A DNA stretch of 64,000 nt from Candidatus Dadabacteria bacterium (GCA_028823955.1 JAPPFE010000016.1:12497-76496); one strand, 5' to 3'. Counted from the stretch's first letter, positions 34,346-56,972 are shown. Translations and numbers: made by a program. The notes: generated from the letters alone by a model not told the origin.

Positions 34346-34421
34346 TCCGGCGTAGCTCAGTTGGCAGAGCAGATGACTGTTAATCATCGGGTCGCAGGTT
34401 CGAGCCCTGCCGCCGGAGCCA
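34346..34421 (+). tRNA. tRNA-Asn (anticodon GTT)
   Basis: Hand-folded cloverleaf. Acceptor stem TCCGGCG/CGCCGGA. D-arm GCTC-AGTTGGCA-GAGC. Anticodon stem GATGA/TCATC with loop CTGTTAA. T-arm GCAGG-TTCGAGC-CCTGC. Discriminator G and encoded CCA. Confidence 0.85.
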
Positions 34422-34519
34422 CAATTAAATTGCAACTGCCTTATATCATTAAATCTTCTGAAATACAAAGAATTTCGGTATCACTATTAATACCACATTA
34501 GATAAAACTAAAAAAAAGA

Positions 34520-35212
34520 TTGATGGAAATAAGTGAGGAATTTTTCAGTTTTGTTTCAGCTCTTCTTGTACTGTATGTGGGAAATCACCTGTTGGATGAG
34601 GAGCGTCGAAACCGGAGAATTAGAGCTCTTTACCAAGCACTTTACGAAGAACTCAAAGAGATTCGAAATGCATATAATGAAGAGGTGGGAGTTTTTTGGA
34701 AGGCACTTGAAGAGGAAGGAGAAGTAAAAGTCTTTCCGGTCAACTTATCACTTACTCAAGATTATCTTGCCGTCTATCATTCAAATGCGAATCTTATCGG
34801 TGAGATCCCGAGCTCAAAACTGCGACGTAAAATAGTAAAAACATATACATCGTTAAAAGTTCTTATTGACTATTACAAACAAAATAACGGATTGCTGGAT
34901 CAGCTTGAAAAGGAAAAGAAGGAATTAGTAAACCAACCTGTGTTAGAGGCTCTTATTGATTATTACAAACAGGATAACAAAATACTGTATGAGCATGAAA
35001 AAAGAGAGTCGACAAAAAAAACCGTTGAATATGATCCAACTGTGCTAGACTTCACAAAACGTCTACAAGAACGTCATCACCGTTTTGAGAGATCTTTGAA
35101 AAAACTCATCAAAACGTTAAAAAAAGAATTGTCTAAATTTAACTACGAAAACCCTGTCCGAACAATCTCCATTCTTCGATCATCAAGCCTGACAACGCTG
35201 CAGCTTTTGTGA
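34520..35212 (+). CDS. AT-rich hypothetical protein with an N-terminal TM helix, coiled-coil and an internal direct repeat
   Basis: 230 aa and clearly lower GC than its surroundings. The peptide repeat LIDYYKQNNGLLDQLEKEKKEL / LIDYYKQDNKILYEHEKRE. It is the first gene after the tRNA. Confidence 0.45.
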   Translation: MMEISEEFFSFVSALLVLYVGNHLLDEERRNRRIRALYQALYEELKEIRNAYNEEVGVFWKALEEEGEVKVFPVNLSLTQDYLAVYHSNANLIGEIPSSKLRRKIVKTYTSLKVLIDYYKQNNGLLDQLEKEKKELVNQPVLEALIDYYKQDNKILYEHEKRESTKKTVEYDPTVLDFTKRLQERHHRFERSLKKLIKTLKKELSKFNYENPVRTISILRSSSLTTLQLL

Positions 35213-35713
35213 TGTCCATACCGCCCCCGACCATGCTTTGAAACGCCCACGGCACTTCGGATGTTTTGGCCGATGTGGCCACACAGGCGTGCTTTTCCAC
35301 ACAAATTGGTGTCATATCCCAAACCAACCTTGAAAAGCGTCATAGTGGGCGACTGAGGCCGCATATACGGGGAGTTTTTTGCCTTCAACGATCCTGACCC
35401 GCCTGCCCGCCATTGAGTGTCTGGGGGGGCATCCGAGCGGATCGAGCCTATACAAACGCGTTCTCGTGCCGGTATGTATCTCAAGGCATACTATACCGGC
35501 GTGGTTGTATTTCGGTGCCCCAAAGCACCTGGAGCGGAGATTCCTTCCAAGCGGAATCTGGCCAGAGTAACCCATTGAGGTTATAACTCTCTTCACCAAT
35601 TTGGCAGAAAGAAGTTGCTTCATTTTGCCTTTGACGGCCTGTTAATGTACATTATAATCTGTTTTCATTGGTTTTCATAGACATTCGACCGACAACTGGC
35701 GAAGAGGATTGAA

Positions 35714-35929
35714 ATGACTGCTGAAGAACGATGGGTCGGCGTCGATGATGTGGCTGCGCATCTCGATGTCAACAAGGATTCCATTTATCGTTGGATAAAC
35801 AACAAGGGTCTTCCCGCGCATAAGGTTGGCCGTCTCTTTCGTTTCAAACTGTCTGAAATCGATGACTGGATTCGTGCCGGTGGCGCGGGTGAAACAGCTT
35901 CCAACAGCCCGGGCCGCGATGGTGATTAA
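35714..35929 (+). CDS. Excisionase-family helix-turn-helix DNA-binding protein (HTH_17 / AlpA-like)
   Basis: 71 aa. WVGVDDVAAHLDVNKDSIYRWINNKGLPAHKVGRLFRFKLSEIDDWI is the canonical excisionase-family HTH. Confidence 0.7.
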   Translation: MTAEERWVGVDDVAAHLDVNKDSIYRWINNKGLPAHKVGRLFRFKLSEIDDWIRAGGAGETASNSPGRDGD

Positions 35930-35940
35930 GGAAACAAGAA

Positions 35941-38679
35941 ATGGCACTGAAGAAGTCTCAACTTTACAGCTCGCTCTGGTTCAGCTGTGACGAACTGCGC
36001 GGCGGCATGGACGCCAGCCAGTACAAGGACTATGTCCTGTTCATGCTGTTCATCAAGTACGTCTCCGACAAGTACGCCGACTCGGACGACTTTGCTCCGC
36101 CGGTGACCATCCCAGAGGGCGCGAGCTTCACCGATATGGTCAAGCTCAAGGGCAAGAGTGACATCGGCGACAAGATCAACACGCAGATCATCCGGCCGCT
36201 GATCGATAACAACTCCCGCTTGGCCCACAGCGACTTCCCCGACTTCAACGATCCAGACAAGCTCGGTGAAGGCAAGGCGATGGTGGATCGCCTGACGAAT
36301 CTGATCAGCATCTTCCAGAGGCCGGAATTGGATTTCTCGAAGAACCGGGCCGACCACGACGACATTCTTGGCGACGCCTATGAGTACCTGATGCGGCACT
36401 TCGCTACCGAGAGCGGCAAGAGTAAGGGCCAGTTCTACACGCCGTCGGAGGTCAGCCGCGTCATTGCTCAGGTCATCGGCATCTCACCCGATACCGCTGT
36501 CGCATCGACCACTGCCTACGACCCGACCTGTGGATCGGGATCGCTGCTGCTCAAGGTCGCCGCCCAAGCGGGCAAACACATCACGCTCGAAGGGCAGGAA
36601 AAGGATCAGACAACAGCAGGCCTTGCCCGCATGAACATGATCCTGCACGACTTCCCGACGGCCAACGTCCTGCAGGGCAATACGCTCGCCAGCCCCAAGT
36701 TCAAGGACGGCGAACAGCTCCGCACCTACGACTACGTGGTGGCCAATCCACCATTCTCTGACAAGACCTGGAGCAACGGCATCACGCCCAGCGCCGATCC
36801 CTATCAGCGTTTCGCTTGGGGCTCACCGCCCGGCAAACAGGGCGACTACGCCTACCTGTTGCACATCATCCGCTCGATGAAGAGTAACGGCAAAGCCGCC
36901 TGCATCTTGCCGCACGGCGTTCTGTTCCGAGGCAATGCCGAGGCCGTGATCCGCAAGAAGCTCGTGCGGTCCGGGTATCTCAAGGGCATCATCGGGCTGC
37001 CCGCCAACCTGTTCTACGGCACAGGCATCCCGGCCTGCATCCTCGTGCTCGACAAGGAGAACGCCAACGCCCGCAAGGGCATTTTCATGGTCGATGCCTC
37101 CAAAGGTTTCATCAAGGACGGTTCGAAGAACCGCCTCCGCGAGCAGGACATCCACCGAATCGTCGACACGTTCAATCGTCAGGCGGATACGCCGCGCTAC
37201 GCCCGGATGGTTCCGTTCGAGGAAATCGACGACCCGAGGAATGATTACAACCTCAACCTGCCTCGTTACATTGACAGCACCGAACCGGAGAACATCCAGG
37301 ACATCGACGGCCACCTGCGGGGTGGCATTCCGGAGCGGGACATTGACGATCTGGATATCTACTGGAAGGTGATTCCCGGCGTGCGCGAAGTGCTGTTCGA
37401 GGATGCCGTGCGCCCCGGCTACTGCCAGTTGCGACTGCCTATCACTGAAGTCAAGGCTGCGATTCTCAAACACGACGAGTTCGACGCATTCAAAGCCACT
37501 GTGACCGACATCTTCGACAAGTGGCGATCCGCAAACGTGAAGCGACTCAAGGGGTTTGATCAGGAAGGTAAGCCCAAGGAACTGATCGCAACCATTGCGG
37601 AAGATCTTCTCGCCGCATTCAAGACCGCACCGCTGCTGAATTCCTATGACATGTACCAGCACCTGATGGATTACTGGGCCGCGACGATGCAGGACGATTG
37701 CTACCTCATCGCCGCCGACGGTTGGACGGCGGAAACCCACCGAGTGCTGGAGGAGGTCAAGAGTGGCAAGAAGAAAGGTGAGATGAAGGACAAGGGCTGG
37801 GCATGCGATCTGATTCCCAAGCCCTACATCGTCGCCCGGTATTTCGCTAAAGAGCAGGTCGAGCTGGATGCCCTCCAGGCAGAACTCGACGACGCCAGCG
37901 CCAGTCTCACCGAACTGGCCGAGGAGCACGGCGGCGACGAGGGCGCACTGAAGGATGTGTCAACCAAGGGCGACGCCCAGAAGGCGTACAACCAGGCGCT
38001 TGTCGCCGTGTGGAACGAGGAAGACAAGGTGGCGTGCGACAAGTACAACACCCTAATCAACGGGACCGAAGAGTATGCGGTCGAGCTTCGCAATCTCACC
38101 GACCATCACCACATCTCGATCTTGAAGAACAGCAAGGGCAACCTGACGCTCAAGGCTATCAGGGACCGCCTGGCATCGACGGGCGACAAGATCGAGCAGA
38201 AGACGCTCATCAAGTACCTCGATGTCGACAAACAGCAGAAGGCCAAGACGAAGGAGGCCGCCGAACTGCTGACCGAAGTTGGGATGCGTTATCGCGAGCG
38301 ACTGAACGCCGACCCGCTGCCCGAGGAACTCGCGGACCTGCAAGTCACCGTCTGTTATCTGGATCTACTCGACAAACAGAGCGTCCTCAAAAGCAAGGTC
38401 AAAGATGCCGACACCGTCCTCAATCAGCTCGTCTATGACAAGTACCCCACGCTCAGCGTCAAGGAGATCAAAACGCTGGTAGTCGACGACAAGTGGCTGT
38501 CCGCCTTGGCAGCTGCTGTGCAGGGCGAACTGAACCGGGTGTCGCAGACGCTCACCGGCCGCATCCGCCAGCTAGCAGAGCGCTACGAGACGCCGCTGTC
38601 GCAGCTCACTGATCTCGTGACCGACCTATCCACCCGTGTGGACAAACACTTGGCAAGAATGAGGGCGGTATGGAACTGA
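35941..38679 (+). CDS. hsdM: Type I restriction-modification system methyltransferase subunit, long form with a C-terminal coiled-coil extension of about 430 aa
   Basis: HsdM N-terminal domain, a SAM-binding region (DPTCGSGSLLL), and the catalytic NPPF (VVANPPFSDKTW). 912 aa. Confidence 0.9.
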   Translation: MALKKSQLYSSLWFSCDELRGGMDASQYKDYVLFMLFIKYVSDKYADSDDFAPPVTIPEGASFTDMVKLKGKSDIGDKINTQIIRPLIDNNSRLAHSDFPDFNDPDKLGEGKAMVDRLTNLISIFQRPELDFSKNRADHDDILGDAYEYLMRHFATESGKSKGQFYTPSEVSRVIAQVIGISPDTAVASTTAYDPTCGSGSLLLKVAAQAGKHITLEGQEKDQTTAGLARMNMILHDFPTANVLQGNTLASPKFKDGEQLRTYDYVVANPPFSDKTWSNGITPSADPYQRFAWGSPPGKQGDYAYLLHIIRSMKSNGKAACILPHGVLFRGNAEAVIRKKLVRSGYLKGIIGLPANLFYGTGIPACILVLDKENANARKGIFMVDASKGFIKDGSKNRLREQDIHRIVDTFNRQADTPRYARMVPFEEIDDPRNDYNLNLPRYIDSTEPENIQDIDGHLRGGIPERDIDDLDIYWKVIPGVREVLFEDAVRPGYCQLRLPITEVKAAILKHDEFDAFKATVTDIFDKWRSANVKRLKGFDQEGKPKELIATIAEDLLAAFKTAPLLNSYDMYQHLMDYWAATMQDDCYLIAADGWTAETHRVLEEVKSGKKKGEMKDKGWACDLIPKPYIVARYFAKEQVELDALQAELDDASASLTELAEEHGGDEGALKDVSTKGDAQKAYNQALVAVWNEEDKVACDKYNTLINGTEEYAVELRNLTDHHHISILKNSKGNLTLKAIRDRLASTGDKIEQKTLIKYLDVDKQQKAKTKEAAELLTEVGMRYRERLNADPLPEELADLQVTVCYLDLLDKQSVLKSKVKDADTVLNQLVYDKYPTLSVKEIKTLVVDDKWLSALAAAVQGELNRVSQTLTGRIRQLAERYETPLSQLTDLVTDLSTRVDKHLARMRAVWN

Positions 38680-40520
38680 AGCCGGGATACAAACAGACGG
38701 AAGTCAGTCCTATTCCTGCAGACTTACATGCCGTTATAACTAACCCACAACGATTCAATAAAGATTGGGAGATAAAGCGGTTGGGGGATTTTGCCGACTG
38801 TGTGGCAGGTGGAACACCGAGCACGCTCAATAAAGAATATTGGGGTGGATCTATTAGATGGATGAGTTCCAGTGAATTAAACAACAAGATTATTCAGGAT
38901 GTTGAGAAGCGTATAACAGAGCGAGGTTTACGGGAATCGAATACCAAAATCATTCCGCCTAGATGTGTTTTAATAGGTTTGGCAGGTCAAGGAAAGACAA
39001 GGGGGACTGTGGCTATTAACTTGGTTGAGATTTGTACGAATCAGTCAATTGCAGCAATTTACCCCAATGAATCTTTTGTTCCAGAGTACCTCTATTATAA
39101 CCTTGATGCCCGCTACCACGAGTTACGTGGAATGTCTGCAGGAGATGGGGGTCGTGGAGGATTGAATCTTCAAATTATTCGATCTATCTTTGTGCCTTTT
39201 CCAGATATTACTGAACAATATGCAATTGCCAAAGTATTGTCGGATGTAGACGGATTACTCGCGGCCTTAGAGGTGCTGATAGTCAAAAAACGCGCCATCA
39301 AACGAGCCGCGATGCACCAACTTCTCACTGGTAGGATGCGCTTGCGGGAGTTTAACGGGGAATGGAGGACAAAGAAGCTCAGAGACTTACTTGCTTATCA
39401 GCGACCAGATAACTACATAGTGCAATCAACTGAAGATGCAAAGCATGGAGAAATCCCCGTATTAACAGCCAATAAGTCGTTTGTCTTACATTATACGGAT
39501 GAGGAGTTTGGTGTCTGTTCTGATGTTCCAGTCATTGTTTTCGACGATTTTACTACGGATTGTAAGTACGTAACATTTCCTTTCAAGGTGAAGTCGTCGG
39601 CAATAAAGCTCCTTCATGCTAACCATGACCGAATTAGTCTCAGGTATGTATACGAGCGCATGAAATTGGTTCATTTCCCGTTGGTTACTCACAAACGCTA
39701 CTATATCTCGGAGTATCAAAACATTGAGTTTTTTGTTCCTAGTTATGATGAACAAGTAGCAATTGTTTCTGTATTATCCGATATGGATGCTGAGATTGCA
39801 GCCCTCGAGCAACGTCGCGCCAAAATCGCCGACCTCAAGAAGGCGATGATGCAGGAACTGCTGACTGGCAAGACGCGGCTGGTTGAGCCTCAGGCGTTGG
39901 ATGAGCAGACCGATGCCGCGTTGGGCAACGCCAAAGGACACAACTGGGCGATCAACGAGGCAGTCGTGATCGCCACGCTGGTCAAGCACTTCGGAGGGGA
40001 GGACTACCCCTTAGGCCGCAAGCGGTACACGAAGCTTTCCTACCTGTTGCACCGCCATGTGGAACGGGAAGCCGATGGCTATCTCAAAAAGGCGGCTGGT
40101 CCCTACAACCCGCAAACCAAGTACGGTGGCCCGGAAAAGATCGCCAAGCAGAACGGCTACATCACGCAGCACAAAGGCTTGAAGGGACACAGCGGATTCA
40201 TCGCCGCAGACAACATCGCCCAGGCCGAAGGCTACTTCGAGAAGTGGTACGGCCCAGAAGTCATCCAGTGGCTGGAGCAGTTCCGCTACAAGAAGAACGA
40301 CGACTTGGAGTTGCTGGCCACCGTGGACATGGCAGCGTTGGAACTGCGAGCATCCGGAAAGAGCGTGACTGTCGCTGCCGTGAAGGACGTTATCACCAGC
40401 CATCCGGAGTGGGAGGCGAAGTTGGATCGCACCGCGTTCTCCGACGCGAACATCGCCGAAGCAATCAAACAGAGCGACGCCCTGCTGGGGGCTGAAATTG
40501 CCGGAGGTTCCCATGCCTGA
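38670..40520 (+). CDS. hsdS: Type I R-M specificity subunit with two TRDs, fused to an uncharacterised C-terminal domain of about 210 aa
   Basis: Two target-recognition-domain-like halves separated by conserved helices ([26 protein letters not shown]; [26 protein letters not shown]). The TRDs are low-GC. The ORF then continues about 210 aa in GC-rich sequence with no HsdS similarity. Its start overlaps the hsdM stop. Confidence 0.75.
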
Positions 40521-43500
40521 AAGAGCCCGACCCGAACGGCTAACCCAGAACCGCGTGGTAGCCCTGTTCACCGACAAGACCCGCTCCGACTGGCTGGAGT
40601 ATCGCTATCTCGGTGACTGGCATCAGCGTGAGAATAACCGGCCCATTGAGGCGGAACTGCTGCGAGCAAACCTCCATGAGCGTGGTTATACGGATGCGCA
40701 CATCTCAGCCGCGTTGCAAAAGCTGGAAACCGCTGCCGATACAACCGGCGTGACACTCTACCAGGCCAACTTACGCACCTACAACCTGCTACGCTACCCG
40801 GTGAAGGTGCAGGTCGCCGTCGGACGGTCGCACGAGGATGTGCATCTAATCGACTGGGAGCACCCGGAAAAGAACGACTTTGCTCTGGCCGAAGAAGTGA
40901 CCCTCAAGGGTGGCTACGAGCGCAGGCCGGACTTGGTGCTCTACGTCAACGGCATTGCGGTGGCTGTGATTGAGCTGAAACGCAGTTCGGTAGAAGTGGC
41001 CGACGGGGTGCGCCAAATCATCACGAATCAGGAAGAGATATTCAACAAGAACTTCTTTTCCGCCGTGCAATTGGTCTTCGCGGGCAACGATTCGCAGGGA
41101 CTGCGCTACGGGACCACCGGCACGCCGGAGAAGTTTTTTGTCCAGTGGAAGGATGAGGACGGCGGCACGGCGATGGAGCCGGGAACGCTCCTGGACAGGC
41201 CGCTGGCCCAGATGTGCCGAAAGGATCGCTTGCTCGATTTGATGCGGAACTTCATCATCTTCGACGCGGGCCAGAAGAAAGTGCCTCGGTCGCACCAGTA
41301 CTTCGGCCTCAAGGCCGCGCAGGAACGAATCGGCAAACGCGAGGGTGGCGTGATCTGGCACACTCAGGGCAGTGGCAAGAGCATTCTCATGGTGCTGCTG
41401 GCTAAGTGGCTGATGGAATACGACCCCGACGCTCGCATTCTGGTGGTTACCGACCGTGACGAACTGGATAAGCAGATCGTGGGCGTCATGCGTAACGCCG
41501 GGGTTATCGTCGAAGACGCCCCCTCACCGCGCATTACCTCGCGGGCGCAGTTCGTCGAGAAACTGGGCGCGACCACGCCTCGCTTGCTGTGTGCGCTGAT
41601 CCACAAATTTGACACGGCCGACCTCAGGGGCGATCCGCCGCCGATTCACGGGCGCTTCTACGTGTTCGTGGATGAGTGCCACCGCACCCAAGGCGGCGAC
41701 ATGAACCGGCAGATGAAGCGATGGATGGAGGATGCCATCTTCATCGGCTTCACCGGCACGCCGCTACTCCGCAAGGACAAGAAGACCACACGCGAAGTCT
41801 TCGGCACTTACATTCACACCTATAAGTTCCACGAGGCCGTGGCGGACAAGGTGGTGCTAGACCTCAAGTACGAAGCGCGTGATGTCCCCCAGCGGCTGAC
41901 CTCGCCGCAGGCCATCGATGCCTGGTTCAACCGGAGGACGCAGAACCTGAACAACTTCCAGAAGGCGGTGCTACGCAAGCGATGGGCAACGATGGAAGAG
42001 TTGATGAGCGCGGGTGAACGCAAACAACGCATCATCGCCAATATCATTGAAGACTTCACCCTCAAGCCGCGTCTCAATAATGATCGTGGTACAGCCATCC
42101 TAGTCGCGGCGTCGATCTACGACGCGTGCCACTACTTCCGGCTATTCCAGAATACGTCGTTTGGTCAGTATTGCGGGATCATCACCTCGTATGAACCGAA
42201 GCATAATGCCATCTCGCGTGAGCCCGCCAACAGTGACGAGCGGTATAAGTTCGATACATACACGCAGCATGTGCTATCCGACGGCCAGACGACCAAGCAC
42301 TACGAGGACGAGATGAAACGCCGGTTCATAGAGGAACCGGCCAACTGCAAGCTGCTGATCGTGGTCAGCAAGCTCCTGACCGGCTTCGATGCCCCGTCCT
42401 GCACGTACATCTACCTCGACAACGAACTGCACGACCACAACCTGTTTCAGGCGATCTGTCGGACAAACCGGCTAGATGGGGACGACAAGAACTACGGATA
42501 CATCGTGGACTTCAAGGAATTGTTCTGCGACGTGCAGGAAGCCATCGCCGTCTACAGTTCGGACGAGCTGGACATCGATGCCAACGGTAGCGATGGCAAT
42601 GTGATTGTGAAGAACTGGCTCGAAGAGGGCAAGAAGAAGCTTGATGCCGCCCGCGAGGCATTGAAGTATCTGTGTGAGCCTGTGGCTCAGCCCAGGGAGA
42701 TGGAGCAGTATCTCCACTACTTTTGTGGCGACGCCAGCGATCCGAACGCCCTCAGCGAGACCGAGGTCCCTCGTATCTCGTTCTACAAGGCTGTCGTGAC
42801 CTTCGTAAGGGCCTTTGCTGCTATTTCGCAGGACCTTTCGGACGCTGGTTACACCAATGCCGAGATTGCGGTGCTCAACAACGAATTCGAATTTTTCAGC
42901 GATACCCGAGCCGCCATCAAGAAGCACTCCGGTGAGGAACTGGACATCAAACCGTACGAAGCGGACATGCGCCACCTCATCAATACCTACATCCAGGCTG
43001 ACCCGGCCGATCAGTTGGGATCGGTGGACAACTATTCCCTGGTTGAGTTGATTATCGAGACGGGTATCCATGACGCCATTGCCAAGAAGCTCAACGAGAA
43101 GGGCAAACTCTCGAAGAACGCTGTGGCAGAGGGCATCATCAACAACGTCCGCAAGACGATCATCCGCGATCAGCTCACCGACCCGAAATTCTACGAGGAA
43201 ATGTCGAAGTTGTTGGACGACCTCATCGAAATGAAGCGGAACATTACCGAGTCGTATGAAGACTTCCTGCAGAAGGCCGAGGCACTTGTGCTCCGCATGA
43301 CTGGCAAGTCAACGAAGGGAACGCACCCCACGGTGTTGAACGGCCATCCGGAAGCAGTCCGGCTGTTTAACAATCTCGCGAGCATTCCGGCAGACACGTT
43401 TCAATGTCCCACTGACGAAGACGAGAAGGCAGAGCTCGCGTTGGACATCAACCGTGCAATGCGCGAGGAGGCACCGGCGGGATGGAAGGGAGACGACACG

Positions 43501-43605
43501 CGAGAAAAGCAGGTGCTTAACGCCCTGTTCCCCTTGATGGATCGCGACCGCAAGGCGACAGAGGCGCTGTTTGAGATTATCAAGAATCAATCGGGGTACG
43601 CATGA
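40513..43605 (+). CDS. hsdR: Type I restriction enzyme endonuclease/helicase subunit
   Basis: N-terminal nuclease domain, SF2 helicase motifs (HTQGSGKS Walker A, DECHR), and the HsdR C-terminal domain. Its start overlaps the hsdS stop. Confidence 0.9.
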
Positions 43606-45409: not shown

Positions 45410-45412
45410 GAG

Positions 45413-48400
45413 ATGGCGGACCGGTCGGACACAAACAGAACGCGGGCATCCATGGCTCACCTTTTAGGTGAGGCATCGAGGAACCTTGCGCGTTTTCTGG
45501 AAAAGGTACTGCCAGGCCTTTTTGACAATTGGTGGGACGAGGCTGTCGTCAACATTCTTTCATTTCAGCAGCGGCGTCGGGTCAAAGAATGCGATATCAA
45601 TTCCTTGGCATCTTTGGATCTCGCTGCGCTGCTTCGTGTGCTTGATCAGAACTGGTATCAGATATCAACGAAACTGGAGTTGACGTCAGAGGCACGCCAC
45701 TTTGTTAAAGAGATGCAGACAGTTCGAAACAGATGGGCGCATGCGGGCAGTGAGGGATTCCCCGTAGACGACGTATACCGGGACCTGGATACGTTACAGC
45801 GCTTCGCTGTTGTCGTTGAGGCTAATGAAAGCCTGCTCGACGAAGTGCGCGAGACAAAGGCGTCCTTGCTTTCCAAGGACCGTCTTGGCCCTGATCAAGA
45901 TGATGCTGTTGTGGAAAGTCCATCTCTGGAGGCACCGGGGTCTGATACGGAATTTACGCCCGGTCAGATCGTTCATCTCAAATCAAATCCAGCCATGCGT
46001 GGTGCCGTCGTTTCCTCAATGCTAGGCAAACCGGAGAACCGATTCCTAGTGTTCATGGACGGCGAAACGCATACCTACTATGCATCACAGCTAAAAGCGG
46101 AAGACCAACCGGAGGACGAATCGCGGTTCTTGCCCTGCGATGAATTCCATTCATACCTCACCGCTTTGCAGATTCGATATCCAGGACTTTCAACGCTTTA
46201 TTCTTTGAATGCCGCCCGTGTGGATTTCATCCCATATCAATTCCGCCCCGTCTTGAGATTCATCCGATCAGATCGTCCCCGATTACTGGTTGCTGACGGT
46301 GTTGGCGTCGGCAAGACCATTGAGGCTGGTTTGATTCTCCGAGAGCTGCAGGCCAGGCGCGACATACGATCCATCTTAATCATTTGTCCCCGACCGCTTG
46401 TTACCGAACGCAAATGGCAAATTGAGATGAAGCGGTTTGAGGAGCGTTTTGTTCATCTGGATGGCCCAACACTGAGGTACTGCATCAACGAAATGGATCT
46501 GGAAGGGTTTTGGCCAGAGCAGCACCAACGAATTATCATCCCATATTCCCTGTTCGATGAAGCGCTTTTATATGGTTCGGACGGCAGGCGAAAACGCAAA
46601 AAAGGCCTGCTGGACTTGGATCCGCCCCCTCGGTTTGATTTGGTCATCGTAGACGAAGCTCATCATATACGGAACCAGGATACGTTCAGTCACAAGGCGG
46701 TGCGATTTTTCTGTGACCATGCGGAAGCCGTGATCTTTCTGACCGCGACTCCCATTCAACTCGACAATCATGACCTGTTCGTCTTGCTGAACACCCTTCG
46801 CCCCGACCTGATTCTCGATCAAGAGAGCTTCGAGCACATGTCAGAGCCGAATCCGTTCATTAATCAAGCGGTAGCCTTGGCCCGTGCCCAAGAGCCGGAA
46901 TGGGCCATCAAAGCCAAGGAGGCTCTGGACAACGCGGCGGGAACGTCTTGGGGGCAGTCAATTCTCAGGCACAATCCAGAGTTCAATCGTATAAATGCAT
47001 GGCTCGCCGACGGCAAAATCGGTTCGGAAGAGCGCGTGCAGCTGATAACCGCTCTCGAGGCTCTGCATACGTTTTCAGGGATAATCAACCGAACGCGCCG
47101 CCGCGATATTGGAGAGTTTACGGTACGCAAGCCCGAAACCGTCGTTGTTGAATTTACTTCGAATCAGAAAGATCTGCATGACGAGTTGCTTCAGGTGCAG
47201 GCAGAGATATTCAGCAGGCTTCACGGGGATGTCAATGTCAAGTTCATGATGACAACCATTCGCAGGCAGGCGGCCAGTTGTCCTTTTGGACTTGTACCCT
47301 TCCTCGAGGAAATACTGAGCCGCCACCTTGATGAATTGTCATGGGAAGAAGCGGACAACACCGAGTTTGTCCCCAAAAGCGACGCTGTTGACAGCATTGA
47401 ATCACGTATCCAGGCAATCCTTGGAAAGGCTCGTGACCTCGATCCATACGATCCGAAACTGGACGCTCTCCGCAATATCATCCGGGACAAGCAAAAGCTA
47501 CCCAATAACAAGGTGATGCTTTTCAGCAGCTTCCGTCACACGCTTCACTATCTCTATGAACATCTCAAGGCGGATGGATTTAGGGTTGGACTTGTTCACG
47601 GCGGAACACCTGATGAGGACCGGGTCGGGCTTCGGAATCGCTTTGAATTGCCGCCAAATCAGGATGACGGCCTCGACATTTTATTGTTTTCAGAGATTGG
47701 CTGCGAAGGTCTGGACTACCAGTTCTGTGATTGCATCGTCAATTACGACCTGCCATGGAACCCCATGCGGGTGGAACAGAGGATTGGCCGCATAGATCGG
47801 AATGGACAGAAGAGCGAGAGTGTCGCCATTTTCAATTTGATCACGCCGGGCACCGTCGATGCGGATATCTACGAGCGGTGCTTGGTGCGGATTGGTGTGT
47901 TCAACAGCGCCCTCGGTGGCAGCGAGGAGATACTCGGGGAGATCACCAAGGAGATTCGCAGCATCGCGGAAAATTTCTCCTTGAACGAAACAGAACGCGG
48001 AGAGCAGCTTCAACAACTGGCGGACAACAAAATCAGGCTGATACAGGAACAGGACGAACTTGAACAGAAACAACTCGAACTGTTCGGCATCCGTCTGCCC
48101 CAAGATCAGATGAAGCGGGAAATCGAGCAAGCATCGAGCTACTGGCTGTCTCCTGTATCGATACGAAGGCTTATTACGATTTACCTTCAGCGCACTTGTG
48201 GCAGGGATCAGGAATTCATACTTGGCGAAAAAGCGCTTAAAACGTTGCGTCTGTCCCAAGAAGCCAGAAACAATCTGTTGCGAGATTTCCGGAGTATCCC
48301 ACGTCAGAACACGACCGTTTATCGCGAATGGGAAAACTGGCTCAAAGGGGGGGACCCGCATCTCCTTATTACATTCGACTCCGAGTGCGCTTCGCAACAC

Positions 48401-49012
48401 CCCGAAGCGGTCTTCATAATGCCCTTTCATCCTTTTGTAAAACAGGCGGCCGCGACCTTCGATACAAAAAGGCGGGTCATGACGGTTTTGCAGTACAAAA
48501 GCAATAAAGTCCCCAAAGGCAGCTATGAATTCGCGGTCTATCAGTGGCAGTTCCACGGCGTTAGGGAGGACTTGGTTCTACAGCCGGTTGCTTCGAATGA
48601 TGTTGTAACCAAGCACATCTCCAGTCTTCTTGAGGGGGCAGAAAGCATAACAACGGAAAGAGTCGATACCCCAGATCCGGATACATGGAACGGTCTGGAT
48701 GCTCAGCATCATAAGATGTGGTCTGAGGCGCGCATCCGGCATCAGCGTAGAACCCAGGAGCTGGCGGAGTACCGGAGGGAAAGTCTTACAACAAGCCACA
48801 GAGCACGAATTGCTCTCTTGGAGGAACAACTCGAGCAGGCAACAAATGAAAGAATCCAGAAGATGCGACGTTCTCAGATAGCCGCGGCGGAGGCCGACTA
48901 TGCGCGACGCATTCAGGAGTTGGATATAGCGATGGAGAGAGCTGAGGTAACCGCCGGGCCCGTAGCTTATGGTGTCATTCAAGTCGATGAGGGCTCGACC
49001 AATGCCGAGTGA
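45413..49012 (+). CDS. 1199-aa fusion: N-terminal Swt1-like HEPN domain plus SNF2-family (SF2) helicase/ATPase plus a C-terminal domain of unknown function with coiled-coil
   Basis: HEPN R-x4-H motif in VRNRWAHAG. SNF2_N Walker A (ADGVGVGKT) and DEAH box (DEAHHIRN...LTATPIQ). Helicase_C motifs (LLFSEIGCEGLDYQ, QRIGRIDRNGQ). Starts 3 nt after the mrr stop. Confidence 0.75.
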   Translation: MADRSDTNRTRASMAHLLGEASRNLARFLEKVLPGLFDNWWDEAVVNILSFQQRRRVKECDINSLASLDLAALLRVLDQNWYQISTKLELTSEARHFVKEMQTVRNRWAHAGSEGFPVDDVYRDLDTLQRFAVVVEANESLLDEVRETKASLLSKDRLGPDQDDAVVESPSLEAPGSDTEFTPGQIVHLKSNPAMRGAVVSSMLGKPENRFLVFMDGETHTYYASQLKAEDQPEDESRFLPCDEFHSYLTALQIRYPGLSTLYSLNAARVDFIPYQFRPVLRFIRSDRPRLLVADGVGVGKTIEAGLILRELQARRDIRSILIICPRPLVTERKWQIEMKRFEERFVHLDGPTLRYCINEMDLEGFWPEQHQRIIIPYSLFDEALLYGSDGRRKRKKGLLDLDPPPRFDLVIVDEAHHIRNQDTFSHKAVRFFCDHAEAVIFLTATPIQLDNHDLFVLLNTLRPDLILDQESFEHMSEPNPFINQAVALARAQEPEWAIKAKEALDNAAGTSWGQSILRHNPEFNRINAWLADGKIGSEERVQLITALEALHTFSGIINRTRRRDIGEFTVRKPETVVVEFTSNQKDLHDELLQVQAEIFSRLHGDVNVKFMMTTIRRQAASCPFGLVPFLEEILSRHLDELSWEEADNTEFVPKSDAVDSIESRIQAILGKARDLDPYDPKLDALRNIIRDKQKLPNNKVMLFSSFRHTLHYLYEHLKADGFRVGLVHGGTPDEDRVGLRNRFELPPNQDDGLDILLFSEIGCEGLDYQFCDCIVNYDLPWNPMRVEQRIGRIDRNGQKSESVAIFNLITPGTVDADIYERCLVRIGVFNSALGGSEEILGEITKEIRSIAENFSLNETERGEQLQQLADNKIRLIQEQDELEQKQLELFGIRLPQDQMKREIEQASSYWLSPVSIRRLITIYLQRTCGRDQEFILGEKALKTLRLSQEARNNLLRDFRSIPRQNTTVYREWENWLKGGDPHLLITFDSECASQHPEAVFIMPFHPFVKQAAATFDTKRRVMTVLQYKSNKVPKGSYEFAVYQWQFHGVREDLVLQPVASNDVVTKHISSLLEGAESITTERVDTPDPDTWNGLDAQHHKMWSEARIRHQRRTQELAEYRRESLTTSHRARIALLEEQLEQATNERIQKMRRSQIAAAEADYARRIQELDIAMERAEVTAGPVAYGVIQVDEGSTNAE

Positions 49013-52004
49013 TTATGATCAAATCAGAGCGGACAATATCCGGGAATACGGTGAGGGAACCCGCCATCTATCTCTTCTTGAGCGTTTATATACGGACCGG
49101 ACGCATTTTATTTTCGAGCTGTTGCAGAACGCTGAAGACGCTGGGGCGACAAGAATTCTGTTTGAGCTTTCCGAAGAAATGCTTGAAGTCAAGCATGATG
49201 GCCGCCCCTTTAACGAGCTCGATGTGAGGGGTGTTTGTGGGGTCGGAGAAGGCGAAAAAGCTGAAGACCTGACACAAATCGGAAAATTTGGGATTGGATT
49301 TAAGTCGGTTTATGCCTACACATCCTCTCCCGAGGTTCATTCTGGGGACGAGCATTTTCGCATTGAGCATTATGTGCGTCCCTGTCCCGCTGATCCCAAA
49401 GAAGCCGGTGACTCTTGGACCACTCTTTTCTGCTTCTCGTTTGATGTACCGACGATGGAGGCTGAAACGGCTTTCAGTGAAATCGCTGCCCGGCTGCGCA
49501 ACCTGAGTGCTAGGACCCTTCTGTTTCTTCGAAGAATCAAGGAAATCGAATACAAGCTTCCCGACGAATCAAGTGGTGTATATCTGCGTGAAGAAATGCC
49601 CCGCGGTCCTGCCAGACAAGTGACCGTGATCGGGCAAAATAACGGTGAAGATGAGGATGAGAACTGGCTTGTCTTTGAGAAGCCGGTTTCCATCCCAAAT
49701 AGCGACTACCCGGTGAAGGTTGAAGTGGCCTTTAAGCTCGAGACGGACACGAAAGAAAAGACCGAGTGGATAACTCGTATCAAGGATGCACCCTTAGTGG
49801 TGTATTTCCCAACAGAAAAGCCAACTCGCTTTGGATTTCTCATTCAGGGCCCGTACAGAACTACACCGTCCCGAGACAATATTCCCAAGGATGACGATTG
49901 GAATACAAACCTTGTTGAGGAGACGGCCAGCCTGCTCGTGGATGCGTTGATAAATCTAAGAACAATGGGGTTGCTGACAGTATCTTTACTCGAATCAATG
50001 CCTATCCGAATGGATGATTTTCCTAAAGGAAGCATGTTTTTTCCCATAACCGAATCTGTCCGCGCTGCCTTTCTTGAACATGAATTGCTGCCTGCGGACG
50101 ACGGAACTTTCGCGAACGCAAAAGACGCCAAGCTCGCCCGTGGTGGGGATTTGAGGAAGCTCCTTGGCCAGGAGCAACTCCGCTCCCTATTTCAATCCGG
50201 CGGTCAGGTTAAATGGTTGGTTGGGACAATCACTCGGGACCGAAAGCCGGACTTGCGAACGTATCTGATGAGTGAGCTTGGTGTGGAGGAGATCACGCCC
50301 GATGGATTTGCCCGAAAGCTCTCAGGGACATTTTTGAAAGTTCAACCAGATGACTGGATGACTTTAATGTACGGGTATGTTGGTGATGAAAAAGCTCTCT
50401 GGCAGACGGGAAGCGGATACTGGAATCCTCCAGGCCCGTTACGTTCTAGACCGATTATTCGTCTTCAAGATGGTTCACAAGTTATACCGTTCCGGGAGGA
50501 TGGATCTCCAAATGCATACTTGTCGGATGGCAATCACACTGAGACTTCCCTGCCAGTCGTAAAGGCAGATCTCTGCCGGCACAAGGAGACCCAACAGTTT
50601 TTAAGGGCCCTGGGTATCCCCGAGTTGGATCTCGTGGAAGAAGTCATTGAAAAGGTCCTGCCAAAATATGCAAGCGACGATTCAGTAGTTGCTATTGAAG
50701 AGCACCAACGCGATATCATTGTAATTGAAAAGGCTTACGGCACGGATTCCCAAGAAAAGAAGAGTCGCCTCCGTGATCGGCTATGTGAAACGCCTTTCGT
50801 GCGTGCAGAGAGTCAAGATGTCGAAGAGCCTATGTACCGGAAGCCGTGCGAGCTTTATTTCGGAAGCAATGAACTGCGATTGTATTTTTCTGGAAACAAC
50901 GCGATTGGATTCGTCAACACTGAATACCCTGAATCCGTTAGATCGCTGTTTGAGGATTTTGGGGTAGTGGATTCTGTACGGGTTTCCCGGAAGGGACAAA
51001 ACGGGCAAGGGCATGTTGTTCTTAAAGATCATCATGGTTGGCATGAAAGGGGTCTTGATGGTTTTGATCCAGACATTTTTGTTGAGGGGTTAGAAATCGC
51101 GTTGGCTTCACCAACGCTGGAGAAAAGTCAATTCATCTGGAATAACATTGCTGTTCGACATTTTTCATGCATTCGTGGTGTGGTCGAGTCGTGTCCGCGA
51201 CAAACTTATGAGGGCAGCACCGAGGAAGATCGAATATCAGAATTTGGACGTTTGCTTATAGAAAATACTTGGCTGCCGTTTTCAGATGGAAGCCTGAAGA
51301 AACCGGGGGAACTCACACTCGATGATCTTCCCGACTCCTTCATAAGAGACGAAAAGCTGGCCCAGCAACTCGGGATGAAGCTGGATCTTATTGCTAAACT
51401 CGCGGAAGAAACAGGCGTAACTGCTGAGGATATCGAACTGCTTAAACTTCATCCGACAGAGTTCCAGCAATGGAAAGCGGCAATATCAGCCGCTAAGGAA
51501 AAACCGGCATTCCCCGAGAGGGCTTCTTCGGACCCGGAGCGCAGACGAGAGAAACTTACTGAGCAACTTGGCGACTCTCCCACCAAGAAATACGAGCAAC
51601 GGGACAGAAGTGTTCGGACAACAAGAAGTGCAATTGATCCGGTTCTGTGGCTCAGGAATCAATACAAGAATGATGCTGGACAGATGATATGCCAGATATG
51701 CAAAGAGGAGATGCCTTTTAGGAAGCGTGATGGGGAATACTATTTCGAAGCTGTTGAGGCTCTTACCAAAGATCATTTCACAATAGAACATGAAGCACAA
51801 TTCTTGGCTTTGTGTCCTTTGTGCTCAGCAATGTACAAAGAATTCATTAAGCCTGATGAAGAGGCTATGGTGGAATTGAAACACGTAATAAGGAACACGG
51901 ATGAGTGCGAAGTTCCTCTGCGTCTCGGGGGACTGAATACAAGCATTCGATTTGTCGAAGCCCACTTTCAGGATATCAGGACCATACTTGAGGAGCAGGA
52001 ATGA
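49002..52004 (+). CDS. 1011-aa protein: N-terminal sacsin/Hsp90-like GHKL ATPase, large middle region, and a C-terminal Cys4 HNH/zinc-ribbon-like module
   Basis: Bergerat-fold motifs ELLQNAEDAGAT (N box), HDGRPF (G1) and GKFGIGFKSVY (G2). C-terminal CQIC...H..IEHE...CPLC. Its start overlaps the upstream gene's stop (ATGCCGAGTGA). Confidence 0.7.
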   Translation: MPSDYDQIRADNIREYGEGTRHLSLLERLYTDRTHFIFELLQNAEDAGATRILFELSEEMLEVKHDGRPFNELDVRGVCGVGEGEKAEDLTQIGKFGIGFKSVYAYTSSPEVHSGDEHFRIEHYVRPCPADPKEAGDSWTTLFCFSFDVPTMEAETAFSEIAARLRNLSARTLLFLRRIKEIEYKLPDESSGVYLREEMPRGPARQVTVIGQNNGEDEDENWLVFEKPVSIPNSDYPVKVEVAFKLETDTKEKTEWITRIKDAPLVVYFPTEKPTRFGFLIQGPYRTTPSRDNIPKDDDWNTNLVEETASLLVDALINLRTMGLLTVSLLESMPIRMDDFPKGSMFFPITESVRAAFLEHELLPADDGTFANAKDAKLARGGDLRKLLGQEQLRSLFQSGGQVKWLVGTITRDRKPDLRTYLMSELGVEEITPDGFARKLSGTFLKVQPDDWMTLMYGYVGDEKALWQTGSGYWNPPGPLRSRPIIRLQDGSQVIPFREDGSPNAYLSDGNHTETSLPVVKADLCRHKETQQFLRALGIPELDLVEEVIEKVLPKYASDDSVVAIEEHQRDIIVIEKAYGTDSQEKKSRLRDRLCETPFVRAESQDVEEPMYRKPCELYFGSNELRLYFSGNNAIGFVNTEYPESVRSLFEDFGVVDSVRVSRKGQNGQGHVVLKDHHGWHERGLDGFDPDIFVEGLEIALASPTLEKSQFIWNNIAVRHFSCIRGVVESCPRQTYEGSTEEDRISEFGRLLIENTWLPFSDGSLKKPGELTLDDLPDSFIRDEKLAQQLGMKLDLIAKLAEETGVTAEDIELLKLHPTEFQQWKAAISAAKEKPAFPERASSDPERRREKLTEQLGDSPTKKYEQRDRSVRTTRSAIDPVLWLRNQYKNDAGQMICQICKEEMPFRKRDGEYYFEAVEALTKDHFTIEHEAQFLALCPLCSAMYKEFIKPDEEAMVELKHVIRNTDECEVPLRLGGLNTSIRFVEAHFQDIRTILEEQE

Positions 52005-52293
52005 GATCGAAAGTAAGTCACAGAAAGCATTTATTGGGCGTGTGCGGTAACAATTCCACAACGTGGGCTTCATTAAGGGCAAGGCAGTGGTTCTGACAGG
52101 GACGTCTTCACAGCAGGGCGAGTCATGATGTTTGCAAAGAGACACATCTCGATTCGCGTTCCATGGCATGACACAGGATGGGACGGTTGCGTTTGTGCTA
52201 ATCCCCTCCTCAACGGGTCATGTCTCAAACTCAAGCGGATTGGGCAAGAGAGGGATGACGCGGTTGAAGAAGCGGTCGTTGGCCGTTCCTTCC

Positions 52294-53487
52294 CTAAAAA
52301 TCTATTTCATGCAGTTTATGCCAAGGCACGATATCCCCGTCCGTCCGTTGCTGAAGTTGTTTTCCTCCATAGGCTATGACTATATTGCACGGACGGGATA
52401 ATTCGGTTAGGTGCTGGCGGACGCGTCGTACACCGCTGAACAGCCTCGAAGATACTGTTGCCGTGGACTTGGCGTCGACAAGCGTAATGCGGGACGGATC
52501 CTCGATGATAATATCTACCTCGGCTCCATTACGGTCGCGGTAAAATGAGAGACCCCCGGTCTTGCCACTGTTGCTTCGGTGTTTTGTTATCTCCGAGACT
52601 ACCCAGGTTTCGAAAATCGGGCCGCGAAGCGGATGAGAGTTTAACTGTTCGGGTGTCCGGATACCCAGGAGCCAACAGACTAGCCCTGTGTCGTAGAAAT
52701 GCAGCTTCGGCATCTTTACGAGTCTCTTGCGCAGGTTCGAGTGAAAAGTCGGAAGGCGGAAAACGATAAAGCTCGTCTCAAGTATGTTAATCCAGGATTT
52801 CGCACTCGGCTGCGATATGCCGCAGTCATCAGCCAGTGAGGAATAGTTGAGCAACTGCGCCGTACGCCCGGCACACAGTTGGACAAACCGTTGGAATGTA
52901 GCTATATCAGCTACGTTGCTTACTGTTCGCACATCGCGTTCCACGTAAGTGGTGACATAAGAGCGAAACCAGTCGGACGGATCAAGATCAAGATCGAATA
53001 TACGTGGGTATCCGCCGGCAAAAAGGGTCTCCTCAAGACTCGGGGGATGTCTGTCGAATCGCGTAATCTCGTTGCGCGCGAGAGGAAACAGGTTATATAC
53101 TGCTGTCCTCCCGGCTAAAGACTGGCTGACCGATTTGAGTAGAGAAAAGTTCTGTGACCCCGTAAGTATCCAGCGCCCCGGCGCAGGATCTTCGTCGATT
53201 ATGCCCTGCAGGTAGGAGAGAAGATCAGGCGCACGCTGCACCTCGTCGATTACGCAGCCTTTTGGAAATTGAGCCAGAAACCCTCTGGGATCCTCAGTTG
53301 CGAAAGCCCGTATGTCCGGAGCCTCAAGGCTTGCGTACGGATGGTGAGCGAACAAGGCCCTGCATAATGTTGTCTTACCGCTTTGCCGGGGTCCCGTAAG
53401 CGTGATGGAGGGAAACTTCCGCGCTGCTTCGATAAGCCTTGGTGCTAGGTTGCGATTGATCATAACCAGTCGCAGTCTAACTGACAA
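52294..53487 (-). CDS. AAA-superfamily ATPase with a C-terminal DUF4143 domain
   Basis: Walker A GPRQSGKTT and Walker B VIDEVQ, with the AAA_14 + DUF4143 architecture. GC-rich like the island. Confidence 0.7.
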   Translation of the reverse strand: MSVRLRLVMINRNLAPRLIEAARKFPSITLTGPRQSGKTTLCRALFAHHPYASLEAPDIRAFATEDPRGFLAQFPKGCVIDEVQRAPDLLSYLQGIIDEDPAPGRWILTGSQNFSLLKSVSQSLAGRTAVYNLFPLARNEITRFDRHPPSLEETLFAGGYPRIFDLDLDPSDWFRSYVTTYVERDVRTVSNVADIATFQRFVQLCAGRTAQLLNYSSLADDCGISQPSAKSWINILETSFIVFRLPTFHSNLRKRLVKMPKLHFYDTGLVCWLLGIRTPEQLNSHPLRGPIFETWVVSEITKHRSNSGKTGGLSFYRDRNGAEVDIIIEDPSRITLVDAKSTATVSSRLFSGVRRVRQHLTELSRPCNIVIAYGGKQLQQRTDGDIVPWHKLHEIDF

Positions 53488-53488
53488 T

Positions 53489-53525
53489 CTAGGCTATTTC
53501 AAATTCTTTTTTTGAAATAGCCTAG
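53489..53525. promoter_or_regulatory. Perfect 15-bp inverted repeat with a 7-nt T-rich loop (CTAGGCTATTTCAAA-ttctttt-TTTGAAATAGCCTAG). It is either an operator or a bidirectional terminator hairpin.
   Basis: I verified base by base that the two arms are exact reverse complements. It lies between the start of the DUF4143 ATPase gene and the end of the small gene at 53545-53892. Confidence 0.35.
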
Positions 53526-53544
53526 ATCCTGCTTCGGGAGTTCT

Positions 53545-53892
53545 CTAGATCAGATAGTAAATCAACATGAAGAGGTACCGCATGTTCGGGCTTGACTTGT
53601 GAGTCTCGAGCCTTGCCGAGAGATCCCCTATGCCGCCGAAGAATGAGTCATTATAGACTTCTGCTACTCTTTTAAACTCATCGAACTTGATAAGCGGCGG
53701 TTCGCGAACGGCAAGCGGCCGCACGTTTTTCTCGGCGGAAGTTATCCTGATTCCGTCACCTTCTGTAGTGGCCAAGAACCATCGCTGGGAGTCTTCGAGC
53801 ATAAGCTCTATTCCGCCTTCGGTTTTCTGTCTAAGAATTTCCCACTCTTCTTCCTTGGATTCGCTGAAAGGTATTTTTCTGTCTGCAAGCAT
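53545..53892 (-). CDS. Hypothetical protein (115 aa)
   Basis: Open frame only, with no motifs recognised. It contains the candidate degenerate att repeat. Confidence 0.25.
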   Translation of the reverse strand: MLADRKIPFSESKEEEWEILRQKTEGGIELMLEDSQRWFLATTEGDGIRITSAEKNVRPLAVREPPLIKFDEFKRVAEVYNDSFFGGIGDLSARLETHKSSPNMRYLFMLIYYLI

Positions 53893-56707: not shown

Positions 56708-56972
56708 TGCGGTTTCCCCGCCCCGGCTTATCCGCCCCCAAGGGATTTCCCCTTCCCCCGAGCGGCATTTGTAACGAAATTGAGGTTTGCCGGGGCATTC
56801 GGTATTCTTTTCCTTGGGAAAGATGAATATCCCGTGGTTTCTCACTTTAACTTTACACAATTATCATGCAGTTTTTTTCCGAGATGCGGCATTATTGCGT
56901 GGGCGTTGCGCAGGACAGCGCTTGGTGCTGGAGAGCCGTTTTCACAATACTTTTTCGTTTCGAGGCGAGTAG

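Follow-up and report, generated by a model that had tools for sequence, protein, structure and literature searches.

How does a block of restriction and defence genes come to sit at the 3′ end of a transfer RNA (tRNA) gene when nothing around it encodes a recombinase? The question is raised by a 64,000-nucleotide (nt) stretch of a Candidatus Dadabacteria genome (GCA_028823955.1 JAPPFE010000016.1:12497-76496; locus tags OXI02_01835..01875 in the source MAG; hereafter the window, from whose first letter all positions are counted), in which ~17.9 kb of inserted DNA, positions 34422–52285, follow a tRNA-Asn gene. A first-pass annotation had read the segment from that tRNA to about 53620, next to uvrA, as a single tRNA-integrated element with no integrase, or a decayed one. 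We consider it probable that 34422–52285 is instead a composite defence island without a recombinase, lodged at a recurrent hotspot between tRNA-Asn and the DUF4143–uvrA flank of Ca. Dadabacteria.

The relatives against which the locus was compared, Ca. Dadabacteria and Thermodesulfobacteriota metagenome-assembled genomes (MAGs; cited by locus numbers such as L020 where they must be told apart), were gathered by an RpoH scan of species-representative genomes (RpoH identity 76–98%), to which a metagenome scan added a few. They keep the synteny tolB-alaS-rpoH-tRNA-Asn ... uvrA-glyA-nrdR-tatD-pdxA, and rpoH adjoins tRNA-Asn in all relatives checked. In the window, tolB, alaS and rpoH (33373–34260, minus strand) lie upstream of the tRNA, glyA, nrdR, tatD and pdxA lie beyond uvrA, and the site itself is framed by the following features:

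34346–34421, plus strand: tRNA-Asn(GTT), the island's anchor and the sole tRNA gene of the window (ARAGORN).
52294–53487, minus strand: DUF4143 AAA ATPase (Pfam), candidate defence gene PDC-S01 in PADLOC.
53545–53892: conserved open reading frame (ORF) of 115 amino acids (aa) between DUF4143 and uvrA.
53961–56798, minus strand: uvrA, the conserved right-hand core flank (Pfam and synteny in relatives).

In the closest relative, L020 (94–97% nucleotide identity), window position 34421/34426 is joined straight to 52286; since the tRNA end meets 52286 there, the insert must be 34422–52285, each end being placed to within ~3 nt by comparison with relatives and the first inserted base lying directly 3′ of the CCA end of tRNA-Asn. 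Island-free genomes, L020 among them, are flush at this point (GCCA joined to AATTCC). Anchoring of the insertion at tRNA-Asn, as first proposed, is thus borne out by its start at the tRNA 3′ end and by relatives with empty junctions: uvrA stands directly beside tRNA-Asn in 14 of ~31 relatives (~45%), DUF4143 alone intervenes in 11, one has an IS630-type insertion sequence (IS) inside DUF4143, and five carry other cargo. The L020 junction moves the right end of the insert from ~53620, at uvrA, to 52285. Because the DUF4143 gene lies directly beside tRNA-Asn in those 11 relatives without everything else (and persists in L004 as a deletion remnant keeping both ends), it is resident, outside this insertion; the restriction and defence cargo named by the first-pass annotation is confirmed by Pfam and PADLOC, but DUF4143 does not belong to it.

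The window's own hsdM-to-sacsin genes occur in none of the 31 loci of the RpoH-based scans. Two further Dadabacteria loci with island genes, L070 and L072, came from an HsdR search, and the metagenome RpoH scan contributed only sites holding DUF4143 alone and a single short contig that has the AT-rich gene described below. Across these genomes the rpoH–tRNA-Asn and uvrA–glyA flanks are constant and the DNA between them is variable. Other cargo at the site includes a cyclic-oligonucleotide-based anti-phage signalling system (CBASS) with restriction–modification (R-M) genes, AbiE (AbiEii in L027), RTX proteins, leucine-rich-repeat and immunoglobulin-repeat proteins and beta-helix proteins; IS256-, IS30-, IS110-, IS5- and IS630-type genes have landed there in L070, L023, L001 and L011. 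Most of the cargo is known or candidate defence (in the window Type I R-M, Mrr/PDC-S02, DrmD-like, TmtA-like and PDC-S01; CBASS in L072 and AbiEii in L027), and the genomes compared indicate that the site is a recurrent multi-cargo insertion hotspot.

Within the window the insert consists of the following parts:

34422–34519, plus strand: leader, the left terminal sequence of the insert (alignment, blastn).
34520–35212, plus strand: AT-rich orphan gene, 230 aa, all-helical with an N-terminal membrane segment.
35213–35251, plus strand: tail after the AT-rich gene (blastn, alignment), conserved, shorter here than in other copies.
35252–35364, no strand: short junction segment, unmatched in every locus by blastn and tblastx.
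35365–35713, plus strand: non-coding upstream stretch of the R-M cassette, shared with L070 from 35365 onward and with the unrelated L071 from 35477 onward.
35714–35929, plus strand: HTH_17/excisionase-family DNA-binding protein, 71 aa (Pfam HTH_17, 1.1e-14).
35941–38679, plus strand: hsdM, Type I methyltransferase, 912 aa with a long C-terminal extension (N6_Mtase 4.9e-97, HsdM_N; PADLOC MTase_I over its full length).
38670–40520, plus strand: hsdS, specificity subunit, 616 aa (Methylase_S; PADLOC Specificity_I over aa 3–405).
40498–43605, plus strand: hsdR, Type I restriction subunit (HSDR_N, SWI2_SNF2, T1R_D3; PADLOC REase_I over its full length).
43602–44318, plus strand: YgjP-like (SprT-like) metallopeptidase, closing the R-M cassette (PF01863, 1.4e-56).
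44306–45409, plus strand: mrr gene, encoding two HARE-HTH domains and an Mrr-type nuclease (HARE-HTH 3.4e-38, Mrr_cat 2.3e-25; PADLOC PDC-S02, 2.6e-39).
45413–49012, plus strand: HEPN(Swt1-like)-SNF2 helicase, 1199 aa (Pfam; PADLOC DrmD-like 3.4e-113; NCBIfam DrmD 307 bits).
48969–52004, plus strand: sacsin-like GHKL ATPase, ~1000 aa (PF25794 SACS 1.2e-18; NCBIfam P_loop_sacsin).
52005–52117, plus strand: conserved DNA downstream of the helicase/ATPase pair, where the sequence common to L070 and L023 ends (blastn).
52118–52285, plus strand: 168-bp segment present only in the window (sequence comparison).

Composition both sets this insert apart and divides it internally. Against a backbone of GC content 0.503 ± 0.015 (2-kb bins) and third-codon-position GC (GC3) 0.578 ± 0.030 (21 core genes), the shift that the first-pass annotation described is significant, reaching z = +6.2 for GC and z = 11 for tetranucleotide distance. 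In 2-kb bins z is about +6 at 36–38 kb and at 40–42 kb and −4.7 in the tRNA-proximal stretch, where the AT-rich gene (34520–35212) has GC 0.369 and GC3 0.338 against the core value of 0.578 (z = −8.1), as its earlier description as strongly AT-rich implied. The GC-rich block supposed to run on to uvrA does exist (GC 0.59–0.60 in 2-kb bins), but it stops at ~44.3 kb: it comprises hsdM (GC3 0.797), the C-terminal part of hsdS (0.779), hsdR (0.759) and YgjP (0.669), with z = +6 to +7 for hsdM and hsdR, and is interrupted by the AT-rich target-recognition region of hsdS (38.7–39.8 kb; 0.425). Beyond it mrr (0.549), the helicase (0.576) and DUF4143 (0.558) are host-like in GC3, and the sacsin-like gene stands at 0.479. 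The compositional shift is therefore significant but patchy, with at least four compositional classes in the island.

The cassettes also have separate relatives elsewhere. The R-M cassette (35477–44355) recurs at 87–91% nucleotide identity in L071, on a 3.3-Mb contig with flanks of GC 0.62–0.69 and no Dadabacteria synteny, where IS3- and ISL3-type genes and a group II intron enclose it; HsdR, which aligns over 100% of its length with 1030-aa homologues, is 80–96% identical at the amino-acid level in named MAGs of Kiritimatiellae, Planctomycetes, Trueperaceae, Woeseia, Marispirochaeta and Desulfobacterota. The helicase/ATPase pair (45404–52089) appears at 83–85% nucleotide identity in other contigs, once alone between housekeeping genes (3.97-Mb contig, flanks of GC ~0.6). 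The foreignness of these contigs is judged by their GC content and missing synteny. What had been taken for one element is a mosaic of at least four cassettes that differ in composition and in outside relatives.

Comparison with relatives at the same site reveals the mosaic in motion. L070, a 1.8-Mb contig, has the same gene order at the same place, plus two IS genes and a second AT-rich paralogue; its identity to the window is 93–98% over 39771–52117, 92.7% in the rpoH flank and 84% in DUF4143. L023 is 98% identical to L070 minus 17.1 kb; the missing DNA runs from within the second AT-rich gene into the 3′ end of the sacsin-like gene, its endpoints overlapping by ~9 nt, and since more than 100 homologues of the sacsin-like protein are full length, L023 is the derived state. 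In L072, CBASS, the HTH gene, hsdMSR, YgjP and the first 150 nt of mrr are followed by a jump to window position 53478, an arrangement that reads as a deletion of mrr through DUF4143, and all that remains in L005 is ~39 nt from the left end fused to ~15 nt from the right. The island is missing from L020 and L029, the closest relatives by backbone (nucleotide identity 96–97% towards uvrA and 94% towards rpoH), whose junctions are flush or unrelated.

Three of these relatives bear on how the DNA first arrived. In L070, L023 and L005, GGGGAGCCA stands immediately before the ancestral flank and matches the tRNA 3′ end, CCGGAGCCA, at 8 of 9 positions; the far edge there reads GCAT(A/G)CGGGGAGCCA, followed by the flank (G/A)TT(T)CC(C)ATTCCTAAAAATC. 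We estimate the chance of such a match at an independently fixed junction at roughly 1e-4 per position, and the repeat is consistent with an old site-specific insertion at the very 3′ terminus of the tRNA. In the window the corresponding stretch, 52118–52285, is different: it holds a 5′ fragment of an ORF, its first 54 codons (MMFAKRHISIRVPWHDTGWDGCVC... / MMFAKRHISIRVPWHDTGWDGCVCANPLLNGSC...), which replaces, and is unrelated to, the 177-bp right terminus where L070 and L023 have their tRNA-end repeat. The 54-aa gene fragment (52125–52285) has no match in NCBIfam or in any locus compared, and the 168-bp segment is probably the stump of a lost neighbouring gene. With one attachment-site copy gone from the window, mobilisation in trans is unlikely.

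We therefore favour a composite origin, which would have proceeded as follows. Site-specific recombination, presumably by an integrase, would first have brought a small islet of leader, AT-rich gene and tail to the very 3′ end of tRNA-Asn, leaving a short tRNA-end repeat at the islet's far edge. Independently travelling defence cassettes would then have piled up between tail and far edge: HTH-hsdM-hsdS-hsdR-YgjP from a high-GC source, the HARE-HTH/Mrr nuclease, and the module of HEPN-SNF2 helicase and sacsin-like ATPase. The block may spread, shrink and reshuffle among Dadabacteria, the likely routes being homologous recombination through flanks and cassettes, microhomology deletions and IS insertions; in the window genome the distal repeat would have been overwritten, so that the island could no longer excise.

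The search for a recombinase supports this account and weakens its nearest competitor. No tyrosine or serine recombinase had been noticed at first pass, and none emerges from Pfam at E ≤ 10, six-frame translation or a motif scan of the window; the six-frame motif scan was likewise negative for every Dadabacteria locus, and it recovered, as positive control, a XerC/D-like gene in the unrelated proteobacterial locus L065. Identified genes (Pfam) fill the remaining island space, and an integrase beside tRNA-Asn is never among the cargo of the relatives examined. The stretch 35213–35700, earlier suspected of hiding a decayed integrase, turns out to comprise, on its left, the tail of the AT-rich module and, from 35365, the R-M cassette's upstream region. 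Across 35200–35720 no integrase or transposase remnant came to light in six-frame translation, in blastn or tblastx searches of all loci, or in Pfam at E ≤ 10; the two ORFs in 35213–35700 have no Pfam match even at E ≤ 10, and a 103-aa minus-strand ORF within 35365–35713 matches no family.

These results make it unlikely that the locus is a single classical tRNA island, inserted in one event by a tyrosine integrase that has since decayed in 35213–35700. That history would account for the exact position at the tRNA-Asn 3′ end, the flush empty sites, the 8-of-9-nt tRNA-end repeat at the far edge in three relatives and the excisionase-family HTH gene at 35714–35929. Yet no frame of 35213–35713 gives a recombinase signal, the stretch is otherwise accounted for and its R-M upstream portion is also present in an unrelated genome; the HTH gene is part of the R-M cassette; and one event sits poorly with at least four compositional classes and with an R-M cassette and a helicase/ATPase pair that each occur alone elsewhere.

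Less probable again is that insertion sequences carried the cassettes in, in the manner of a composite transposon, with the short repeat as a target-site duplication. IS256-, IS30-, IS110-, IS5- and IS630-type genes do occur at the site in L070, L023, L001 and L011, IS3- and ISL3-type genes bracket the R-M cassette in L071, and a repeat of 7–9 nt is within the range of transposase target duplications. The island in the window, however, contains no transposase gene or fragment and no terminal inverted repeats at its ends, and the leader abuts the CCA end of three different tRNA or transfer-messenger RNA (tmRNA) genes, a better fit to recognition of such sites than to ordinary transposition. Weakest of all is an ancestral, vertically inherited region whose empty sites are secondary losses and whose unusual composition stems from constraints on individual genes: L070 does have the same genes in the same place, L023, L072, L005 and L004 are demonstrably deletion derivatives, and mrr and the helicase are host-like in GC3, but GC3 z values run from +6 to +7 down to −8 inside one operon-sized block, the R-M cassette is 87–91% identical in a genome with flanks of GC 0.62–0.69, HsdR is at least 80% identical across several phyla, and the closest backbone relatives L020 and L029 lack an island that the more distant L070 (rpoH flank 92.7%) carries at 95%.

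Several observations weigh against the composite, recombination-borne origin that we favour. The integration step depends on three relatives and a repeat of 7–9 nt, which a transposase target duplication could equally yield; in the window itself, searches for a tRNA-end repeat with exact and mismatched 12–24-mers return only a chance-level 12-mer inside DUF4143. An integrase-bearing version of the islet is absent from ~31 relatives, from the metagenome scan and from a scan of viral contigs with the leader pattern (0 matches). Spread by homologous recombination is suggested by mosaic identity, part of which differential purifying selection could explain, and all compared genomes are metagenome assemblies.

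The tRNA-proximal module of leader, AT-rich gene and tail has a distribution of its own. The leader is homologous to the ~95 nt that follow the CCA end of tRNA-Leu and tmRNA genes at other islets; by blastn across all loci compared it is found only beside tRNA or tmRNA genes, and it is absent from island-free relatives. The AT-rich protein has no Pfam, PADLOC or NCBIfam match, and its family amounts to only 16 protein clusters among 5.8 billion proteins. Every context seen places the gene just 3′ of a tRNA or tmRNA gene in the same orientation: at tRNA-Asn in the window, L001, L023, L070 and L079; at tRNA-Leu(GAG) in L119 (9883–11011, with a GmrSD gene) and L120 (9884–11408, two paralogues and no cargo); and at tmRNA in L121 (1012–2210, with an MmeI-like enzyme). 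Cargo always lies beyond the tail.

In the islets seen, this membrane/coiled-coil family is accompanied by defence cargo past the tail and by no recombinase. The protein was considered, and rejected, as a cryptic recombinase: its AlphaFold2 model (predicted local distance difference test score 73) is an all-helical bundle with no significant match in the PDB. Repeats of the tRNA-Leu or tmRNA ends were not found at the far edges of L119–L121, edges that are undefined without an empty site. As a tentative proposal, which we rate well short of an even chance, leader, AT-rich gene and tail could be the hallmark of an undescribed class of recombinase-less islets that home to the very 3′ ends of different tRNA and tmRNA genes and serve as landing pads for defence cassettes, in which case the agent that targets and inserts them could be either supplied in trans or of a new type.

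Next in the island, hsdM, hsdS and hsdR form a clustered Type I R-M system, all three full length against Pfam and PADLOC profiles, and YgjP travels with hsdR in L070, L071 and L072. The 71-aa HTH protein that opens the cassette matches the NCBIfam excise domain (2.9e-13) and, below cutoff, a MAD1-like model (1.9e-19), and is probably the cassette's regulator. The variable, AT-rich recognition domains of hsdS (38702–39770) have no match in L070, L071 or L072, and from 39771 onward identity is 90–95%. Compared with L070, window positions 36800–39770 comprise an hsdM 3′ half at 81–89% identity and hsdS recognition domains without a match, set in a cassette otherwise 93–98% identical; this segment looks like a replaced allele, a swap of the specificity module. 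The GC-rich C-terminal extension of HsdS (~210 aa, 39870–40520) has no Pfam match and a weak resemblance to the DarG C terminus (E = 0.003), and is conserved along with hsdR in L070, L071 and L072 (90–95%). Downstream of the cassette, the HARE-HTH/Mrr protein is a candidate Type IV-like restriction enzyme.

The last module pairs two large proteins with intact motifs: in the helicase a HEPN Rx4H motif (R105..H110), a Walker A motif GVGKT (lysine K301) and a DEAH box, and in the ATPase a GHKL N-box ELLQNAEDAG (with N54 and D57, numbered by ORF) and glycine box GKFGIGFKS. In 9 of 9 contexts seen, the sacsin-like gene is preceded by an SNF2 helicase gene, directly adjacent in six (the window and L066–L070); the two genes overlap by 11 nt in L066–L070, and the window's ORFs overlap too. 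Three distant versions (L073–L075) have one to three small ORFs between the two genes, among them one for a 200-aa protein that proved similar to neither the HEPN domain nor the helicase C terminus. The helicase core of L073 is 72% identical to the window's, and the N-terminal effector varies: HEPN here, DUF4926 in L074, and none in the helicases of L073 and L075, where small PIN-like ORFs lie nearby. Among solved structures, none comes closer than RapA and the eukaryotic sacsin repeat.

The pair is a conserved module in many lineages and matches no named defence system. DISARM, for which drmA, drmB (DUF1998) and either drmC or drmMI/MII must accompany drmD, does not apply: the helicase core resembles DrmD, but at 307 bits against an NCBIfam cutoff of 610, and the island has no other DISARM gene. 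Tiamat (TmtA) is a single protein in which a C-terminal PD-(D/E)xK nuclease is fused to a sacsin-like ATPase (bioRxiv 10.1101/2024.10.26.620412); the window's ATPase covers only positions 33–808 of the 1302-position TmtA profile, has no nuclease domain in its C-terminal third and always comes with a helicase partner. Operons of GHKL (MORC/paraMORC) ATPase, SF2/SNF2 helicase and nuclease were predicted in 2008 to be R-M-like (PMC2292703), and the present pair likewise joins an SNF2-family helicase, a GHKL-type ATPase and a nuclease domain (HEPN). Set against these three, it lacks a methyltransferase, the Tiamat nuclease part and the other DISARM genes, and its effector is swappable. Judged by sequence, the pair may be an unnamed two-gene anti-phage system with an exchangeable N-terminal effector, in which a DNA-tracking helicase and a clamp-like ATPase might sense foreign DNA and release the HEPN RNase, with an abortive-infection-like outcome.

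Further variation surrounds the hotspot. DUF4143 alleles of L020 and L005 are 96–97% identical to the window's at the amino-acid level and most others 83–88% (L070, 84% at the nucleotide level); these allele groups do not track island presence, which points to recombination at the site. A perfect 17-nt inverted repeat, ATCTAGGCTATTTCAAA / TTTGAAATAGCCTAGAT, spans 53487–53527 at the start of DUF4143, and deletion or replacement endpoints fall near it in L072 (53478), L002 (53532), L006 (53544) and L029 (53545). In L072 a CBASS pair (CD-NTase and Cap15-like effector; 3606–5053) lies between the leader and the same R-M cassette. In L001 (1–4000) the hotspot holds a very large minus-strand gene for a protein with tandem 72-nt leucine-rich-type repeats and repeats of ~280 nt, adjoined by IS110- and IS5-type genes. 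L020 has extra DNA, absent from the window, at the uvrA–glyA junction and in the rpoH–alaS interval (1–5400, 10900–16250), and there may thus be further variable spots on both sides of the tRNA-Asn locus.

Set beside known systems, the locus combines familiar parts. Classical tRNA islands carry P4-type integrases, as does the high-pathogenicity island of Yersinia at asn tRNA genes, and share with this one the exact insertion at a tRNA-Asn 3′ end, atypical composition, flush empty sites and, in relatives, a distal repeat; unlike them, it has no integrase or remnant in the window or the relatives examined, its repeat is 7–9 nt long and missing from the window, and it is a mosaic of cassettes. 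Cis-mobilizable elements (CIMEs) and tandem accretion at tRNA sites have been described for integrative and conjugative elements of Streptococcus. An attachment-site-bounded element without recombination genes of its own, movable only in trans, with DNA added in or next to an islet, recalls our account; the window lacks the distal attachment-site copy of a CIME, L070 and L023 would qualify on sequence, and, a point of difference, we know of no helper element or integrase for Dadabacteria. The immigration control region of Escherichia coli (hsdRMS-mrr-mcrBC) likewise clusters a Type I R-M system with an Mrr nuclease, has no mobility genes, is polymorphic among strains and undergoes allelic exchange of hsd. 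The Dadabacteria locus differs from it in its flanks, its tRNA anchor, its extra cargo (YgjP and the HEPN-SNF2/sacsin-like pair) and the segment replaced, here the hsdM 3′ half plus the hsdS recognition domains.

The island itself is ordinary and the locus is of an already known type, the tRNA-flanked core defence hotspot; current views are not overturned. It supplies cases, resolved to the base, in which defence cassettes were gained, exchanged as alleles or deleted through microhomology; the near-identical Type I R-M and helicase/ATPase cassettes shared by genomes that differ greatly in GC content are direct evidence of recent transfer of immunity genes between distant bacteria; and two testable leads follow, the orphan family always found at tRNA and tmRNA 3′ ends and the widespread, uncharacterised helicase/GHKL-ATPase pair. 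Pseudomonas aeruginosa has core defence hotspots beside tRNA-Pro (cDHS1) and beside tmRNA (cDHS2) (PMC10250203), and 68% of occupied sites at E. coli hotspot #37 have no detectable mobile element (PMC10121019). As at those sites, conserved core flanks that include a tRNA gene enclose variable, mostly defensive cargo, many occupied sites lack identifiable mobile-element machinery, and IS and other mobile elements land occasionally; transfer through conserved flanks has been proposed for them (PMC10250203, PMC10121019). Unlike the P. aeruginosa hotspots, which are almost always occupied, the Dadabacteria site is empty in ~45% of relatives, and unlike both it belongs to uncultivated bacteria with small genomes (~1.5–2.4 Mb) and has its tRNA-proximal edge marked by the module of leader, AT-rich gene and tail. 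Core defence hotspots flanked by a tRNA gene, familiar from Pseudomonas and E. coli, thus extend to the uncultivated, small-genome Dadabacteria.

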